Under the pieces are notes generated by a model, which did not search any database, was not told the DNA's origin, and saw only the letters and a program-made list of their open reading frames with translations. From a virus (Duplodnaviria; Heunggongvirae; Uroviricota; Caudoviricetes), in IMG/VR virus record IMGVR_UViG_2693429634_000002, positions 1-5,156 of that record: 5,156 nt of DNA. One strand, 5' to 3'. This document shows positions 1-5,156 of the stretch, piece after piece (within the stretch, counting starts at the first letter, position 1; each line of letters opens with the position of its first letter). The translations under genes were made by a program, and so were the position numbers.

Positions 1-72
1 TAAGAGACCAGGCGGGGGAGAAATCCCTCGCCACCGCTGATGTGTCAGGCATCCTCAACGCACCCGCACTTA

Positions 73-99
73 ACCCGCTTCGGCGGGTTTTGTTTTTTC
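73..99 (+). terminator. Rho-independent terminator (stem ACCCGC / tetraloop TTCG / GCGGGT, then T-rich tail TTTGTTTTTTC)
   Basis: Perfect 6-bp GC-rich inverted repeat at 73-78/83-88 with a TTCG loop, followed directly by a T-rich run. It lies downstream of a TAA at 1-3 that may end an upstream gene. Confidence 0.5.
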
Positions 100-170
100 T
101 GGTCGTTCTGGTTTACAATCCATCCGTCAGCCTGAACAACTGGCACCTGCTGCGCCAGCAGAGAAAACAG

Positions 171-449
171 ATGGCGCACGATACCAAATTTTACAATTCG
201 GATAACTCTGCCGCCCCTGCCAGCAGGCACGGGCGGCGTTCTCATGCATTCAAATCTGACTGGTATCAGCACGACCCCTGCACCGAAGAACAGGCTGAAT
301 GGCTGATTCAGTGTTACCGCAGGCGCGGATACGAGATTAAGAAAGCCCTCAGCCTCGACTACCGTCACTGGATAATCTCCGTCAGGCTTCCTTACTCCGA
401 ACGGCCACCGCGTCCGTCCCGCACATTCCAGCAACGCATCTGGAGGTAA
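171..449 (+). CDS. Small hypothetical phage protein (nin-region), 92 aa, basic and Arg-rich
   Basis: The ORF track extends this frame back to GTG 42, but that extension would translate through the terminator hairpin and T-tract at 73-99. ATG 171 follows the terminator; its Shine-Dalgarno is weak (AGAGAAAACAG). The stop TAA 447-449 sits inside the GGAGG-TAAC-GTG junction with the next gene, suggesting translational coupling. Product identity not recognised. Confidence 0.45.
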   Translation: MAHDTKFYNSDNSAAPASRHGRRSHAFKSDWYQHDPCTEEQAEWLIQCYRRRGYEIKKALSLDYRHWIISVRLPYSERPPRPSRTFQQRIWR

Positions 450-450
450 C

Positions 451-1506
451 GTGCGGGTATTACTTCGACCTGTTCTGGTACCGGAACTCGGGCTGGTGAT
501 CGTTAAGCCGGGCCGTGAATCCATGCCGGTATTCCACAATACCCGGGTACTGGTGGAGCCGGAACCGAAAAGCATGCGTAATCTGCCGTCCGGGGTCGTT
601 CCTGCCGTTCGCCAGCCGCTGGCGGAGGATAAATCATTACTGCCATTTTTCAGCGACGAACGAGTGATTCGTGCTGCTGGTGGCGCTGGCGCATTGTCTG
701 ACTGGTTACTGCGCCATGTTAAATCCTGCCAGTGGCCACACGGCGATTATCACCACAGTGAAACCGTCATTCACCGTTATGGTACCGGCGCAATGGTGTT
801 GTGCTGGCACTGCGACAACCAGTTGCGTGACCAGACCTCCGAATCACTTGAGCAACTTGCTCACCGAAACTTGTCAGCATGGATGATTGACGTCATTCGT
901 CACGCAATGAATGGCACACAGGAGCGTGAATTATCGCTGGCTGAATTATCCTGGTGGGCGGCCTGCAATCAGGTGGTGGATGCACTACCTGAGGCAGTAG
1001 CGCGTCGTTCGCTGGGATTACCAGCGGAAAAAATCCGCTCCGTATACCGTGAGAGTGACATCGTACCGGGAGAACAGACAGCCACCAGCATACTGAAGCA
1101 GCGCACAAAAAATCTTGCGCCGCTGCCTCACGCCCACCAGCAAAACCCGCCACAGGAAAAGACGGTGGTCAGCATTGCCGTTGATCCGGAGTCACCGGCT
1201 CAGTATCTCCAGCGCCAGAAATCACAACGGGAAGAGATGCCTGTATACACGCGCTGGGTAAAAACGCAGAAATGCATGACGTGTGGCAATCAGGCAGATG
1301 ATCCGCATCACATCATTGGTCATGGACTGGGAGGGATGGGAACAAAGGCTGATGATTTGTTTGTTATTCCGCTGTGCCGTAAATGCCATAACGAACTGCA
1401 CGCCGGGGTAAAAGATTTTGAAGAAAAACACGGCAGCCAGCTGTTGTTGCTGATTCGTTTTTTAATGCACGCGAGAAATTCGGGTGTCCTGAAGTGGAAA
1501 GCATGA
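451..1506 (+). CDS. DUF968-like prophage protein (YdfU-like) with C-terminal HNH-like Cys/His cluster; putative nuclease or recombination accessory protein
   Basis: 351-aa ORF starting at GTG 451, preceded by GGAGG (442-446) with a 4-nt spacer. C-terminus carries C-x2-C...HH...C-x2-C-H-x3-H (CMTCGNQADDPHHIIGHG...CRKCHNELH). A second Cys/His cluster lies near residue 95 (CQWPHGDYHH...CWHCDNQ). Stop TGA 1504-1506 directly abuts the rusA ATG at 1507. Family assignment is from memory of DUF968/YdfU proteins of similar size and context, not from a search. Confidence 0.7.
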   Translation: MRVLLRPVLVPELGLVIVKPGRESMPVFHNTRVLVEPEPKSMRNLPSGVVPAVRQPLAEDKSLLPFFSDERVIRAAGGAGALSDWLLRHVKSCQWPHGDYHHSETVIHRYGTGAMVLCWHCDNQLRDQTSESLEQLAHRNLSAWMIDVIRHAMNGTQERELSLAELSWWAACNQVVDALPEAVARRSLGLPAEKIRSVYRESDIVPGEQTATSILKQRTKNLAPLPHAHQQNPPQEKTVVSIAVDPESPAQYLQRQKSQREEMPVYTRWVKTQKCMTCGNQADDPHHIIGHGLGGMGTKADDLFVIPLCRKCHNELHAGVKDFEEKHGSQLLLLIRFLMHARNSGVLKWKA

Positions 1507-1872
1507 ATGACTGAACGCATAGAATTTGTTTTGCCTTACCCGCCGACGGTGAACACCTACTGGCGACGTCGTGGCAGCACATATTTTGTGTCAAAAGCCG
1601 GTGAGCGTTATCGCCGGGATGTGGCACTTATTGTTCGCCAGCAGCGGCTGAAATTAAACCTGTCCGGAAGGCTGGCGATAAAGATTATTGCAGAGCCACC
1701 GGATAAGCGCCGCCGCGACCTGGACAATATCCTGAAGGCACCACTGGATGCGCTTACGCATGCCGGACTACTTATAGACGACGAGCAGTTTGATGAAATC
1801 AATATTGTGCGCGGTCAGCTCGTTTCTGGTGGGCGGCTGGGCGTGAAGATTTACAAAATTGAAAGTGAGTGA
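1507..1872 (+). CDS. rusA: Crossover junction endodeoxyribonuclease RusA (Holliday junction resolvase)
   Basis: 121-aa product MTERIEFVLPYPPTVNTYWRRRG...PPDKRRRDLDNILKAPLDALTHAGLLIDDEQ... matches the RusA hallmark (RRRDLDN acidic catalytic region, about 120 aa) and the typical position just upstream of Q in lambdoid phages. Confidence 0.9.
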   Translation: MTERIEFVLPYPPTVNTYWRRRGSTYFVSKAGERYRRDVALIVRQQRLKLNLSGRLAIKIIAEPPDKRRRDLDNILKAPLDALTHAGLLIDDEQFDEINIVRGQLVSGGRLGVKIYKIESE

Positions 1873-2435
1873 GCATAAATATGATATACCCGGAAATTAC
1901 AGGCAAAAGCGGTGAGCATTTACGCCTGAAAACGCTGGAAAGTGTCTGGATCCAGGGGAAACTGCGTATGTGGGGGCGTTGGTCGTATATTGGCGACGGT
2001 AAGACGGGAAATATGTTCAACCAATTACTGACCTCTAAAAAGCTGACAAAAACGGCAATTAACGAGGCGCTCCGGAGGATGAAAAAAGCGGGTCTGGACA
2101 AACCTGAACTTGAGGCTTTTTTGCGGGATATGATCAACGGCAATCAAAAAAGCTGGCTGGCACATTGTACCGATTCAGAGGCGTTAATAATCGACAGGGT
2201 TATTGGTGAAGTACTGGCAGGTTATCCCGGGCTGCTCAATGTTCTGAGTCAGCGTTATGTGGGGCGGGGGATGACTAAGCGCAAAATGGCTGAACTGCTG
2301 AATGATGCACATCCGGAATGGAGTTTAAGAACCTGTGAAAGACGCATTGAGCATTGGCTAAAGGTGGCAGAATTTATTTTGTACAAACCAATGGTTATGG
2401 CTTTTGGTATAGAGAAAAAAGTTATTGCTTTTTGA
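1869..2435 (+). CDS. Late-gene antitermination protein Q, phage-82/QuuD-like family (no lambda-Q zinc finger)
   Basis: 188-aa ORF whose GTG 1869 overlaps the rusA stop (GTGA); ATG 1881 is an alternative start. Contains an LRMWGRW...LLTSKKLTK segment resembling the ERWGAW...LITSK motif I recall from Q82/QuuD-type proteins. Sits immediately upstream of a promoter-like element and a strong intrinsic terminator (the PR'/tR' arrangement). No CxxC zinc-finger pairs as in lambda Q. Confidence 0.65.
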   Translation: MSINMIYPEITGKSGEHLRLKTLESVWIQGKLRMWGRWSYIGDGKTGNMFNQLLTSKKLTKTAINEALRRMKKAGLDKPELEAFLRDMINGNQKSWLAHCTDSEALIIDRVIGEVLAGYPGLLNVLSQRYVGRGMTKRKMAELLNDAHPEWSLRTCERRIEHWLKVAEFILYKPMVMAFGIEKKVIAF

Positions 2436-2462
2436 CGTAAAAACTGCTTCAATTCCGATAAG
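2425..2462 (+). promoter_or_regulatory. Candidate late promoter PR' and Q-utilisation region
   Basis: TTGACG (2432-2437) overlaps the Q stop codon. The -10 is ambiguous: CGATAA or GATAAG 18-19 bp downstream, or TTGCTT(2425)-N17-TTCAAT(2448). Position between Q and the terminator at 2514-2537 matches the lambdoid PR'-qut-tR' layout. Exact hexamers are uncertain. Confidence 0.3.
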
Positions 2463-2513
2463 CTTTCGCAAAGCTGTACCGCGAGGCGAATAGCAGACAT
2501 GGACATTTGAAAG

Positions 2514-2537
2514 AGCCCGCTTTTTGCGGGTTTTTTT
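2514..2537 (+). terminator. Rho-independent terminator, tR'-like (stem CCCGC / loop TTTTT / GCGGG, then T7)
   Basis: AGCCCGC-TTTTT-GCGGG followed by TTTTTTT at 2531-2537, about 80 bp downstream of the Q stop. This is the expected site of the terminator that Q-modified RNA polymerase reads through. Confidence 0.7.
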
Positions 2538-2648
2538 ATGACTGAAAAACGGCACGGGGCGTTAAACGCGCTGGTGGTTGCTAATACCGGTCTTTCAACT
2601 TGCTGGCTTTTTCGACAAGAGTTATTGGTATGTCACGTTAACCGGAAA

Positions 2649-2858
2649 ATGGAAAAAGACATGCTAAAACAGCAGGATATGACCGAAACCGCCAGAGTGG
2701 TGTTTAATGAATTAAGCGTCACCGAACCGGCGACCGCCGGGGAAATTGCGCAGAACACTTATCTTTCACGCGAACGCTGCCAGTTAATACTGACCCAGCT
2801 TGTTATGGCGGGTCTGGCAGATTATCAGTTCGGTTGTTACAGACGCCTTCCTCAGTGA
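2649..2858 (+). CDS. Small putative helix-turn-helix (winged-helix-like) DNA-binding protein, about 69 aa
   Basis: The ORF track gives 2538..2858, but ATG 2538 directly follows the terminator T-tract with no Shine-Dalgarno. Internal ATGs at 2649, 2661 and 2679 are more plausible starts. C-terminal segment TEPATAGEIAQNTYLSRERCQLILTQLVMAGL has an HTH-like pattern. Stop TGA 2856-2858 is embedded in its own terminator hairpin. The start is uncertain. Confidence 0.4.
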   Translation: MEKDMLKQQDMTETARVVFNELSVTEPATAGEIAQNTYLSRERCQLILTQLVMAGLADYQFGCYRRLPQ

Positions 2859-2868
2859 AGGCTTTTTT
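2845..2868 (+). terminator. Rho-independent terminator (GCCTTC / loop CTCAGT / GAAGGC, then TTTTTT)
   Basis: Perfect 6-bp inverted repeat 2845-2850/2857-2862 followed by T6 at 2863-2868. The loop/stem overlaps the stop codon of the small HTH ORF. Confidence 0.55.
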
Positions 2869-3008
2869 ATTTGTGGTAATGGGCGGCTGGTGGGTGTTAG
2901 CGGCACCTGCCAGCCATCTGCTCATGCGTTGGGGTCACAAGCAAACCTCAGGCCCATCTGCTTTGCGCAAAAGCGGTATGAGCCTATCAGAGAAGTGCTT
3001 ATTGATCT

Positions 3009-4067
3009 ATGGCTAATACTGTAAAAATATCCAGTTGTGAGTTAATCAACGCTGATTGCCTGGAATTTATCCAGACCTTACCGGAAAACTCTGTCGATCT
3101 GATAGTCACAGACCCGCCATACTTTAAAGTGAAGCCCGAGGGCTGGGATAACCAGTGGAAGGGCGACGATGATTACCTGAAGTGGCTGGACCAGTGTCTG
3201 GCGCAGTTCTGGCGGGTGCTGAAACCTGCCGGAAGTCTTTACCTGTTCTGTGGCCATCGCCTGGCATCTGACATTGAAATCATGATGCGTGAACGCTTCA
3301 ATGTGCTGAACCATATTATCTGGGCGAAGCCGTCCGGACGCTGGAACGGGTGCAACAAGGAAAGCCTGCGGGCGTATTTTCCGGCCACAGAACGCATTCT
3401 GTTCGCGGAACATTATCAGGGGCCGTATCGTCCGAAAGATGATGGCGATGAGGCGAAGGGCAGGGCACTGAAACAGCATGTGATGGCCCCGCTGATTTCT
3501 TACTTTCGTGATGCGCGTGCTGCTCTTGGGATAACGGCAAAACAGATTGCAGATGCCACAGGAAAGAAAAACATGGTGTCGCACTGGTTCAGTGCCAGTC
3601 AGTGGCAGCTACCGAACGAAAGCGATTATCTGAAATTACAGTCGCTGTTTGCCCGGGTGGCAGAAGAGAAACATCAGCGGGGAGAACTGGAAAAGTCCCA
3701 TTACCAACTGGTCAGCACATACAGTGAGCTGAACCGGCAGTATATGGAACTGCTGAGTGAATATAAGCATCTGCGGCGGTATTTTGGCGTGACGGTGCAG
3801 GTGCCGTATACCGATGTGTGGACGCATAAACCGGTGCAGTTCTATCCCGGGAAACATCCGTGCGAAAAACCGGCAGAAATGCTGCAGCAGATAATCAGCG
3901 CTAGCAGTCGTCCGGGTGACCTGATTGCAGATTTTTTCATGGGGTCGGGTTCGACAGTGAAAGCGGCACTGGCGCTCGGGCGTCGTGCAATTGGCGTTGA
4001 GCTGGAGACTGAACGTTTTGAGCAGACGGTTCGGGAAGTACAGGATTTAGTCAGCCAGAACGGATGA
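3009..4067 (+). CDS. DNA methyltransferase, beta-class amino-MTase (probable N6-adenine; N4-cytosine not excluded), apparently orphan
   Basis: 352-aa ORF. Motif IV DPPY (LIVTDPPYF) near the N-terminus is followed by LKPAGSLYLFCG. The C-terminal AdoMet motif is HPCEKPAEMLQQIISASSRPGDLIADFFMGSGSTVKAA. Motif order IV then I indicates the beta permutation. A roughly 150-aa insert between the motifs is a likely target-recognition region. No restriction endonuclease ORF is adjacent in this window. Confidence 0.9.
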   Translation: MANTVKISSCELINADCLEFIQTLPENSVDLIVTDPPYFKVKPEGWDNQWKGDDDYLKWLDQCLAQFWRVLKPAGSLYLFCGHRLASDIEIMMRERFNVLNHIIWAKPSGRWNGCNKESLRAYFPATERILFAEHYQGPYRPKDDGDEAKGRALKQHVMAPLISYFRDARAALGITAKQIADATGKKNMVSHWFSASQWQLPNESDYLKLQSLFARVAEEKHQRGELEKSHYQLVSTYSELNRQYMELLSEYKHLRRYFGVTVQVPYTDVWTHKPVQFYPGKHPCEKPAEMLQQIISASSRPGDLIADFFMGSGSTVKAALALGRRAIGVELETERFEQTVREVQDLVSQNG

Positions 4068-4069
4068 TA

Positions 4070-4098
4070 TTGAAGAATTAATTACGCGTCGTTATTAT
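4070..4098 (+). promoter_or_regulatory. Candidate sigma70 promoter for the tRNA cluster (TTGAAG-N17-TATTAT) with GC-rich discriminator
   Basis: -35-like TTGAAG at 4070-4075, 17-bp spacer, -10-like TATTAT at 4093-4098, then GC-rich GCGGCTCCC before the tRNA 5' end at 4108, resembling stable-RNA promoter discriminators. Overlaps the methyltransferase stop codon. Sequence-pattern only. Confidence 0.3.
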
Positions 4099-4107
4099 GC
4101 GGCTCCC

Positions 4108-4183
4108 GGCCCTTTAGCTCAGTGGTGAGAGCGAGCGACTCATAATCGCCAGGTCGCTGGTTCAAATCCAGCAAGGGCCACCA
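4108..4183 (+). tRNA. ileZ: tRNA-Ile2 (anticodon CAU, presumably lysidine-modified to read AUA); ileZ-like
   Basis: Manual cloverleaf: acceptor GGCCCTT/AAGGGCC, U8, D-stem GCTC/GAGC, anticodon loop CTCATAA (CAT), T-arm GCTGG-TTCAAAT-CCAGC, discriminator A, encoded CCA. Overall sequence is close to what I recall of E. coli ileX rather than elongator tRNA-Met. Ile versus Met cannot be proven from sequence alone. Confidence 0.85.
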
Positions 4184-4190
4184 TCACATA

Positions 4191-4267
4191 CCGCCATTAG
4201 CTCATCGGGATAGAGCGCCAGCCTTCGAAGCTGGTTGCGCGGGGTTCAAGTCCCCGATGGCGGTCCA
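4191..4267 (+). tRNA. argN: tRNA-Arg (anticodon UCG, reads CGA/CGG); argN-like
   Basis: Manual cloverleaf: acceptor CCGCCAT/ATGGCGG (C1:G72), U8, D-stem GCTC/GAGC with GG in the D-loop, anticodon stem CCAGC/GCTGG, loop CTTCGAA (TCG), T-arm CGGGG-TTCAAGT-CCCCG, discriminator U, encoded CCA. Lies 7 nt after the preceding tRNA. Confidence 0.8.
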
Positions 4268-4280
4268 TTATCTGCATCAT

Positions 4281-4357
4281 GCGTTGTTAGCTCAGCCGGA
4301 CAGAGCAATTGCCTTCTAAGCAATCGGTCACTGGTTCGAATCCAGTACAACGCGCCA
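4281..4357 (+). tRNA. argO: tRNA-Arg (anticodon UCU, reads AGA/AGG); argO-like
   Basis: Manual cloverleaf: acceptor GCGTTGT/ACAACGC, U8 A9, D-stem GCTC/GAGC, anticodon stem ATTGC/GCAAT, loop CTTCTAA (TCT), T-arm ACTGG-TTCGAAT-CCAGT, discriminator G, encoded CCA. Lies 13 nt after the previous tRNA. Confidence 0.85.
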
Positions 4358-4372
4358 CACTTATTTTCCCTG

Positions 4373-4396
4373 GCTCGCTTTTGCGGGCTTTTTTTT
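4373..4396 (+). terminator. Rho-independent terminator after the tRNA cluster (GCTCGC / loop TTTT / GCGGGC, then T8)
   Basis: 6-bp stem with one G-U pair and a TTTT loop, followed by TTTTTTTT at 4389-4396, about 15 nt after the last tRNA CCA. Confidence 0.6.
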
Positions 4397-4593
4397 AAAT
4401 GTCTCACAATTCAGGCGGTTGACTGTTGTCTGGTTTGCGGGGAGTTTGTTAAAAGAAACTGGCATGGTGAATCCCCCTGTGCGGAGGGGCAATCAGCGAG
4501 TAGGTATATGGGATAATCGCGGATTCAGGTGCTGGTACTGAATTCACCGGGAGGCACCCGGCACCATGCAATGGCACATAGCGCCACTCTCCA

Positions 4594-4621
4594 GCCCCTC
4601 TCCGGAGGGGCTTTCTTATGG
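4594..4621 (+). terminator. Terminator-like hairpin (GCCCCTC / loop TCCG / GAGGGGC, then TTTCTTAT)
   Basis: Perfect 7-bp GC stem 4594-4600/4605-4611 with a 4-nt loop and a moderately U-rich tail. No coding gene precedes it, so it may belong to a small RNA or to a convergent terminator pair. Confidence 0.35.
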
Positions 4622-4623
4622 AC

Positions 4624-4652
4624 AAAAAAAGCCCGCGCAGGGAGACGCGGGC
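4624..4652 (-). terminator. Terminator-like hairpin on the minus strand (A7 on + is U7 on -, adjacent to GCCCGCG / 8-nt loop / CGCGGGC)
   Basis: 7-bp perfect GC stem 4631-4637/4646-4652 immediately 3' of the A-tract 4624-4630 on the + strand. Read on the minus strand this is a stem followed by a U7 tract. No convincing minus-strand gene is seen to its right in this window. Confidence 0.3.
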
Positions 4653-4845
4653 GGCAAGGAATAAACAACAAAACGTGAAGTAATATTTCAGCTGGCGAAT
4701 AATATCCGACAGTAATCACTCTGCGCAATAGCGCGGCCTTTTTCGTATTGCGGGCTGTTGTCTCTCTTCTGCCATTGTCCTGTAACTTCCGGACTTCAGC
4801 CCGCTCCTCATTTTACTCACAATATTATCCCGGCCGGGAGGATTC

Positions 4846-5156
4846 ATGGCATTTAAACACTATGATGTTGTCAGGGCGGCGTCGCCGTCAGACCTTGCGG
4901 AAAAGCTGACACACAAACTGAAAGAGGGCTGGCAGCCGTTTGGTAGTCCGGTGGCCATAACCCCTTATACCCTGATGCAGGCGATTGCAGCAGAAGGTGA
5001 TGTGGTGGTCAGTGGTGCAACTGAGCCGGATTGGTACTACGTCATCGTACTGGCCGGGCAGTCCAATGCTATGGCTTACGGTGAAGGGCTTCCGCTGCCG
5101 GATTCATACGATGCTCCGGATCCGCGCATTAAACAGCTGGCGCGCCGCAGTACAGT
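4846..5156 (+). CDS. Prophage sialate O-acetylesterase NanS-p-like protein (DUF1737 N-terminus plus start of SASA/SGNH domain); 5' portion only, runs off the window
   Basis: ATG 4846 preceded by GGGAGGA (4836-4842). Open to the window end, so absent from the complete-ORF track. Translation MAFKHYDVVRAASPSDLAEKL...DWYYVIVLAGQSNAMAYGEG shows the GQSN block-I motif of SASA-type esterases. Matches the gene found downstream of stx in Stx phages as I recall it. Confidence 0.7.
   Translation, partial: MAFKHYDVVRAASPSDLAEKLTHKLKEGWQPFGSPVAITPYTLMQAIAAEGDVVVSGATEPDWYYVIVLAGQSNAMAYGEGLPLPDSYDAPDPRIKQLARRST

Follow-up and report, generated by a model that had tools for sequence, protein, structure and literature searches.

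A conserved leader, most likely a cis-acting RNA, precedes the M.EcoGII-type methyltransferase gene behind a Q-like antiterminator in an Stx-phage-like Escherichia coli prophage

What controls an orphan DNA methyltransferase gene placed in the late region of a lambdoid Escherichia coli prophage, and what is the role of the spacer immediately in front of it? The question is raised by the 5,156-nucleotide (nt) stretch analyzed here (positions 1 to 5,156 of IMG/VR record IMGVR_UViG_2693429634_000002; hereafter the window, meaning the stretch at its full length), in which a small gene and the methyltransferase gene are separated by a spacer containing a short palindrome. An original prediction, made from the letters of the DNA, had likened this layout to the controller-protein and operator arrangement of restriction-modification (R-M) systems. 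Here the conserved feature was found to be the whole ~135-nt spacer and not the 10-bp palindrome within it; the spacer had been missed in that prediction, as had a Q-like antiterminator gene and two terminators. The explanation that we favor, and hold to be likely, is that the locus is a Q-gated late-operon cassette for an M.EcoGII-type enzyme with a cis-acting RNA leader. The features concerned, including one open reading frame (ORF) of 65 amino acids (aa), are as follows:

1881..2435, plus strand: Q-like late antiterminator (DUF1133 / Phage_antitermQ; PF06576 E=4e-105, PF06530 E=6e-8; PHROG 753 'anti-termination protein Q-like' E=5e-81)
2516..2537, plus strand: intrinsic terminator after Q (tR'-like), CCCGC-TTTTT-GCGGG then TTTTTTT, read from the sequence
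2661..2858, plus strand: small conserved ORF, 65 aa, probable winged-helix protein, PHROG 331 ('unknown function'; RefSeq WP_000917751.1, homologues, codon-position bias)
2845..2868, plus strand: terminator-like hairpin spanning the small-ORF stop codon, with a T-run (hairpin scan)
2877..3008, plus strand: conserved non-coding leader ending at the methyltransferase start codon (45-51-locus alignments, covariance model R1)
2879..2925, plus strand: hairpin 1 of the leader, ~20 bp, irregular (minimum free energy fold, covariation)
2958..2976, plus strand: hairpin CTGCTTT-GCGCA-AAAGCGG, containing TTTGCGCAAA at 2962-2971 (palindrome scan, minimum free energy fold)
3009..4067, plus strand: beta-class N6-adenine DNA methyltransferase of the M.EcoGI/M.EcoGII clade, WP_000024311.1, 352 aa (PF01555, identity to M.EcoGII)

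In a cross-genus alignment, the leader (~135 nt) was more conserved than the silent sites of either flanking gene, with identity to the window averaging 75% as compared with 45% at the third codon positions of the methyltransferase. Since indels in this region are not multiples of three and the overlapping ORF is not preserved, the leader is non-coding; the ORF in question (45 aa, 2879-3016), which meets a stop after 7 codons in most loci, was rejected as a gene. The covariance model R1, built from 45 sequences and searched only in sequences already retrieved, matched the window at 2872-3014 with 138 bits and, under default filters, found 47 further loci from other Enterobacterales genera and species, with the element ending at the methyltransferase start. 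A diverged leader from Pseudocitrobacter (L055) was recovered at 27 bits in a filters-off search only, and a possible copy on a Vibrio plasmid (24 bits) ends well 5' of the gene. Linkage to the enzyme was also evident in IMG/VR, where the methyltransferase came next after a 20-nt core of the leader in 114 of 121 instances, three of the others being at contig ends and four being remnants. The remnants (L107, L145, L171 and L190) retain the first ~35 nt of the leader up to a shared breakpoint inside hairpin 1, beyond which unrelated AT-rich DNA replaces the methyltransferase; they are recombination products. In another locus, L149, two copies of the leader plus methyltransferase 5' end, one of them truncated, were seen ~3 kb apart (402-421 and 3388-3407, minus strand), an arrangement that could have arisen by duplication or by recombination between cassettes.

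Of 44 species-level loci, 15 have no small gene, and in these the leader was as well conserved as in the rest. No Rfam 15 family matched 2860-3008 even at E≤10, the leader sequence strings had no occurrence in the searchable literature, and a promoter scan gave no sigma-70 promoter in the spacer. As read from the sequence, the ATG at 3009 is not preceded by a Shine-Dalgarno at normal spacing. In view of its obligate linkage to the gene and its position directly against a start codon that lacks such a Shine-Dalgarno, the leader is best read as a cis-acting RNA, most likely one belonging to the methyltransferase message, on which it would act via translation, processing or stability; it might also bind the small protein or the enzyme.

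The minimum free energy fold of the leader (z=-3.3) consists of the ~20-bp irregular hairpin 1 at 2879-2925 and a second domain at 2932-3007. Most of the covariation support was found in the upper stem of hairpin 1, where 4 to 6 of 9 pairs are changed on both sides; in L055, for example, this stem reads CGCGGGA/UCCCGCG where the others have GGCUGG/CCAGCC. Double-change pairs numbered 5 compared with 1.7 in shuffles when the MAFFT alignment was used, and 11 compared with 2.2 in shuffles (0/500) in the model-fitted alignment, the covariation being modest because the leader sequence is so conserved. The tally of pair types in the sense-strand model, 128 G.U cells against 8 A.C cells, favors a sense-strand RNA over duplex DNA, with the caveat that the model was derived on that strand. 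In the consensus fold, GGUC (2933-2936) is paired with GAUC (3003-3006), 2 nt 5' of the AUG. Hairpin 1 is supported by these data, and the remainder of the leader fold is provisional.

The perfect palindrome reported in the original prediction, TTTGCGCAAA, does exist, at 2962-2971 rather than 2963-2972, and ends 37 nt 5' of the ATG. On its own it is statistically unremarkable: the window has 8 palindromes of 10 bp compared with 5.4 +/- 2.5 in randomizations, and the chance of at least one such palindrome per 150-nt spacer is ~0.14. The palindrome is the tip of one hairpin in the ~135-nt leader and not a free-standing operator. In every leader-bearing locus but L054, which has a mismatch, the surrounding repeat, GCTTT-N(5-6)-AAAGC, begins at a constant -48 to -51 relative to the ATG. 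A second conserved copy of the repeat was not found in 50 related loci, and the repeat search returned 7 off-target matches in 369 kb with ~2 expected. An inverted repeat, GCTTT-CGC-AAAGC, with arms matching those of the leader hairpin was observed at 2462-2474, between the Q stop codon and the first terminator; it is private to the Q module of the window, being absent from other loci, and is probably a coincidence or a piece of the pR'/qut region.

The enzyme encoded behind the leader matched PF01555 (N6_N4_Mtase) over residues 29-340 (E=6e-44), and its motif IV, DPPY, at residues 35-38 (nt 3111-3122) precedes motif I, FFMGSGST, at residues 309-316 (nt 3933-3956). With DPPY N-terminal to FxGxG (FMGSG, residues 310-314) the motif order is that of the beta class, in agreement with the assignment made in the original prediction. 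Its orphan status, claimed at the same time, was also borne out, as Pfam, RefSeq annotation and PADLOC revealed no gene for a restriction endonuclease, whether within the window or across the 17 kb of RefSeq context. The DUF968/HNH protein (451-1506) was considered as a cognate nuclease and rejected, being a standard gene at this position in lambdoid prophages that is present in other Q modules and separated from the enzyme by RusA and Q. In a comparison with M.EcoGII, 327 of 349 residues were identical (94%), including the central target-recognition region, the M.EcoGII sequence being that printed in the supplement of PMC11551740 (SUPREM), machine-read from the PDF. The enzyme of phage 1720a-02, reported by Murray et al. 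to be very similar to M.EcoGII (PMC5778455), shares 93% identity with the window methyltransferase, and a published AlphaFold model exists for a 94%-identical protein.

Judged by its sequence, the window gene is thus a close relative of M.EcoGII and an ordinary member of an already characterized family. Like M.EcoGII and M.EcoGI from the prophage of E. coli O104:H4 C227-11, with ~94% full-length identity and the same motif order, it is prophage-borne and has no partner endonuclease (PMC5778455); it differs from M.EcoGII in ~20 substitutions and a C-terminus 3 residues longer, and its activity is presumed to be the same. M.EcoGII methylates adenine in any sequence context, accepts single-stranded DNA and RNA as substrates and blocks many restriction enzymes in vitro, anti-restriction protection being its proposed role (PMC5778455). 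Lysogens do not express it, and its constitutive expression slows growth (PMC5778455; PMC12707154). Homologues from O111 Shiga toxin-producing E. coli, at 92-93% similarity, are listed as non-specific, and their lysogens showed no detectable methylation (PMC6602927). By homology, the window enzyme would methylate adenine in essentially any context.

A roughly 150-aa insert between the catalytic motifs, which the original prediction could not assign, turned out to be the normal central target-recognition domain of the family (~nt 3370-3850). It corresponds to ~residues 120-280, a segment without alignment to solved beta-class enzymes, those in the PDB (RsrI, CcrM and MboIIA) aligning to residues 8-140 and 264-345 only. 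A weak HTH_3 match at residues 167-195 agrees with the assignment to target recognition.

The small ORF in front of the leader, for which a lack of conservation would have spoken against the original prediction, is conserved: across 23 diverged loci, substitutions at codon positions 1, 2 and 3 stand at 207:162:700, a bias that shows it to be a real gene. It was correctly recognized at the outset, with a start that has since moved: the ~69-aa protein from ATG 2649 becomes one of 65 aa from ATG 2661, the RefSeq start and the Met at which most representative homologues begin. ATG 2649 is unconserved, and a purine-rich stretch 5' of 2661 is conserved. A longer, 106-aa ORF from ATG 2538 was rejected, its start lying inside the T-run of the upstream terminator and its N-terminal part outside the conserved block; homology to other phages starts at 2526, 2563 or 2610, varying by phage. 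Homologues (n=337) occur across Enterobacteriaceae, with E. coli, Shigella, Salmonella, Klebsiella, Citrobacter, Raoultella, Lelliottia and Buttiauxella among the named sources, and the family is narrow, with 60 representatives at 50% identity among 1.84 billion proteins. Wherever IMG/VR loci offered enough flanking DNA, the methyltransferase lay 3' of the small ORF (66 full, 1 partial, 0 absent), and diverged small ORFs (35-55% identical) occupy the same position before the methyltransferase. The small ORF is present in about two-thirds of the species-level methyltransferase loci, and some of the 15 of 44 loci that lack it keep only its 3'-end hairpin.

The protein is probably a winged-helix protein, as suggested by structure modeling. 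In its AlphaFold2 model (pLDDT 77), three helices are followed by a C-terminal stretch that is poorly formed at the position expected for a wing, and the best Foldseek matches were mostly winged-helix domains (Z-alpha, MarR/OhrR, ArsR), all with E>0.4, a TM score of about 0.5 and none significant. The best Pfam match was TrmB, a winged helix, with E=0.0017, below the Pfam cut-off; the label 'TrmB family transcriptional regulator' given in some sources has the same sub-threshold match, and no NCBIfam match was obtained. The helix-turn-helix (HTH)-like segment noticed in the original prediction is only weakly supported by this model and these matches.

In lambdoid phages, transcription from pR' reaches the late genes, stx2 among them, only if Q lets the polymerase pass tR' and later terminators. 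In the window, the Q-like gene (its start, 1881, being the RefSeq start) is followed by the terminator at 2516-2537, which we infer from its position to act as tR'. This terminator was not listed by the hairpin scan, where greedy stem extension into the T-run is suspected, and weak terminator-type Rfam matches (Trp_leader, isrK) overlap 2462-2539. The second one, at 2845-2868, is the terminator that the original prediction had correctly placed where the small ORF ends; most related loci retain its hairpin, and in 22 of 40 the T-run would be adequate for termination. Three unrelated Q families precede the cassette, a DUF1133 type here, PF06530 in Buttiauxella and PF06323 in Klebsiella, and in Stx phages the cassette is found between Q and stx2AB. 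With the gene lying 3' of Q and of two terminators, its transcription is expected only with Q read-through after induction, and the silence reported in lysogens would follow from its position behind the two terminators. For the window itself, it is the two upstream terminators and the Q gene alone that hint at silence in the lysogen, the prophage location itself being established. The literature searched yielded nothing relevant linking M.EcoGII to antitermination.

We therefore propose, on the basis of the gene order, that the methyltransferase cassette is an accessory unit with which the late operon of a lambdoid prophage begins. The promiscuous enzyme would be harmful to the host and so would be off in the lysogen. 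After induction, Q-modified RNA polymerase would read through 2516-2537 and 2845-2868 into the methyltransferase, and late in infection this would give a burst of promiscuous adenine methylation on replicating phage DNA, so that the methylated progeny DNA would resist many host restriction systems at once. A more specific proposal, which we advance tentatively and as one possibility, is that 2877-3008 is an undescribed cis-regulatory RNA for M.EcoGII-type enzymes and that it and the small winged-helix protein would jointly act as a post-transcriptional gate following the logic of Mu com-mom, timing a toxic, promiscuous DNA/RNA methyltransferase to lytic growth.

A number of observations weigh against this account. 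The covariation figures come in part from a model-fitted alignment, which leans toward the model, and from related sequences, and most leader base pairs are invariant. The antisense strand folds about equally (-30.3 vs -27.1 kcal/mol), leaving the strand undecided by energy. Occlusion of the start region is weak, the mean unpaired probability being 0.40 compared with 0.45 with shuffled upstream sequence, and the strong conservation of the predicted loops would also be compatible with a function in DNA or protein binding. With respect to transcription, the promoter scan found no pR' between Q and the first terminator, where by eye only a weak TTGACG-N19-GATAAG is apparent, so that Q-dependence rests on gene order. 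The absence of the small ORF from 15 of 44 loci means that it is dispensable for the enzyme. As regards the enzyme, the machine-read M.EcoGII sequence contains a few evident errors, and for the window allele both non-specific activity and an anti-restriction role are attributed by homology.

The conservation of the loops and the presence of a putative DNA-binding protein next door bring into consideration a DNA operator, in which a winged-helix dimer would bind GCTTT-N5-AAAGC (2960-2974) or other spacer DNA and repress or activate transcription of the methyltransferase. In most loci the small gene has the repeat next to it and the two are conserved together, the repeat is held at a fixed distance from the ATG, loops as conserved as stems would suit protein recognition, and the three-helix bundle model finds its best structural matches mostly among DNA-binding winged helices. 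We nevertheless regard this reading as improbable: the spacer has no sigma-70-like promoter that could be under control, the repeat has no second conserved copy (the one at 2462-2474 being confined to the Q module of the window), the element is as conserved where the small gene is missing, deviations from symmetry are mostly of the G.T type on the sense strand, as suits RNA over duplex DNA, and the winged-helix assignment itself is below significance. The R-M controller, that is, a C-protein with its C-box as a remnant or part of an R-M system, is far less credible still, and the controller-operator analogy of the original prediction was not sustained. The resemblance to the C proteins of type II systems (C.PvuII, C.AhdI) is a superficial one of layout, a small gene for a putative HTH protein with an inverted repeat or palindrome near a methyltransferase, and the locus lacks their endonuclease, Xre-type fold match and paired operators. 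C-boxes precede the C gene, whereas the palindrome lies on the wrong side, 3' of the small gene, has no second conserved copy and belongs to an element that is kept without that gene. No endonuclease was found in the 17-kb context, the small protein had no Xre/HTH_3 match, with PADLOC giving only a marginal SWIM_XIII (E=0.0035), and the closest characterized relative is non-specific, a property incompatible with a cognate sequence-specific endonuclease.

Another parallel, although a poor candidate in its full form, is phage Mu. Mom is not an S-adenosylmethionine-dependent methyltransferase of the fold of the window enzyme, Com is a zinc-finger protein, and com overlaps mom. The two systems would be alike in a broad anti-restriction modification, silence in the lysogen and harm when expressed, both have a small gene plus structured leader 5' of the enzyme gene, and Mom and M.EcoGII have been grouped on that basis in a review (PMC12707154). 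By analogy, the small protein of the window could be a translational activator or RNA chaperone acting on the leader RNA of a toxic DNA-modifying enzyme, a notion to which the lack of a Shine-Dalgarno at normal spacing before ATG 3009, the leader abutting the start codon and the synteny of the winged-helix-like ORF, reaching loci at 35-55% identity and possibly L055, lend some weight. We think it doubtful, however, as the small protein is winged-helix-like and lacks a zinc-finger motif (two conserved Cys only, no CxxC pairs), is missing from one-third of the species-level loci and is separated from the methyltransferase by a terminator-like hairpin where com and mom overlap; in silico, the leader occludes the start site only weakly, and RNA binding by the small protein is conjecture. 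RNase III cleaves long irregular duplexes of the hairpin 1 kind, and Stx-phage late regions yield small RNAs. The leader could accordingly be a separate product or signal, either an RNase III processing site splitting the late transcript or a trans-acting small RNA: hairpin 1, its best-supported structure, is long (~20 bp), irregular and without a U-tract, as in an RNase III-like substrate, and start-site occlusion is weak. This is also unlikely in our estimation, given that the element never occurs apart from the methyltransferase except in the four recombination remnants cut in hairpin 1, stops precisely at the start codon in each locus, and has no terminator after it.

Other phages encode orphan adenine methyltransferases, such as the Dam-like M.EcoVT2 of Stx phages, T4 Dam and P1 Dmt, which likewise have no endonuclease and for which restriction protection has been proposed. 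These are GATC-specific and belong to other classes or families (PF05869/PF02086 type), and Klebsiella relatives of the cassette carry a Dam-family gene separately. In Klebsiella prophages L007-L010 (302-3032), a Dam-family gene and a large C5-cytosine methyltransferase gene are located 5' of Q, in addition to the M.EcoGII-type cassette, so that three DNA methyltransferases are stacked.

As for the setting, a chromosomal prophage of E. coli O55:H7 USDA5905 is 99.9% identical to the 5156-bp window. Annotation with Pfam, PHROG and RefSeq gave the gene order DUF968/HNH, RusA, Q-like antiterminator, small ORF, methyltransferase, three tRNAs, STnc100 and the start of nanS-p, the features not listed above being:

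451-1506: DUF968/HNH protein (Pfam/PHROG/RefSeq)
1507-1872: RusA (Pfam/PHROG/RefSeq)
4108..4357, plus strand: three tRNA genes, a tRNA with CAT anticodon (Ile in RefSeq), tRNA-Arg TCG and tRNA-Arg TCT
4433-4623: small RNA STnc100 (RF02076; Rfam covariance match, 138 bits)
from 4846: DUF1737/SASA esterase (nanS-p type), start only (Pfam/PHROG/RefSeq)

The block of small ORF, methyltransferase and tRNAs is common to ~250 phage records, mostly Stx2-converting phages, and the order with Q before it is kept in them. In the Stx2 phages carrying the block, the tRNAs are in the same order as in the window and are followed by stx2AB, which lies between the tRNAs and STnc100, and the three tRNAs are members of the same late transcription unit in Stx phages. 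With the slot of the stx cassette lying between the tRNAs and STnc100, the window prophage has the toxin-less layout, and the window represents the late-regulatory region of a lambdoid E. coli prophage that resembles Stx phages but has no stx. The cassette was found in 1915 of 5426 complete E. coli genomes (35%), with a median of two copies and a maximum of nine.

Further observations were made in and around the window. STnc100 was seen 3' of stx2B in an Stx2a phage (L002 7239-7453). The first tRNA (4108-4183) was called Met (anticodon CAT) by ARAGORN and tRNA-Ile by RefSeq, and the phiP27 copy is named ileZ; a tRNA adjoins the methyltransferase in Klebsiella too (L007 6384-6456). A weak isrK-like Rfam match at 12-93 (27 bits, E=0.006, under the gathering score) coincides with a hairpin plus T-run just 3' of hokD (RefSeq context) and may be the 3' end of the hok mRNA or a terminator. 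The sole 12-bp perfect palindrome of the window, TCCCGGCCGGGA (4828-4839), overlaps the ribosome-binding region of the nanS-p-type gene (start 4846). Close relatives (96.8% identical) have a ~2.2-kb insertion 5' of the DUF968 gene, relative to the window at ~150, as in E. coli SLK172 (L004, 1169-3321); insertions of this type encode an HTH-domain protein, with an ImmA/IrrE-type annotation in some strains, and small hypothetical proteins.

The enzyme itself is not new, being one more allele of a characterized family that is commercially sold and in REBASE. What is apparently new is the conserved leader with its usual small winged-helix companion, of which no description was found in the M.EcoGII papers checked; the paper by Murray et al. 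(PMC5778455) makes no mention of the small gene 5' of the enzyme gene, of the terminators or of the conserved leader. The gene order gives a concrete, testable reason for the silence of M.EcoGII-type genes in lysogens, in that the gene lies behind the putative tR' and a second terminator on a presumably Q-dependent late transcript, and in Stx phages stx2AB is on the same late region as the methyltransferase. The proposed control, if true, would be relevant to users expressing M.EcoGII as a tool. Should the leader and the small protein indeed control the enzyme, the locus would be a new instance of phages keeping a self-toxic hypermodification enzyme in check.

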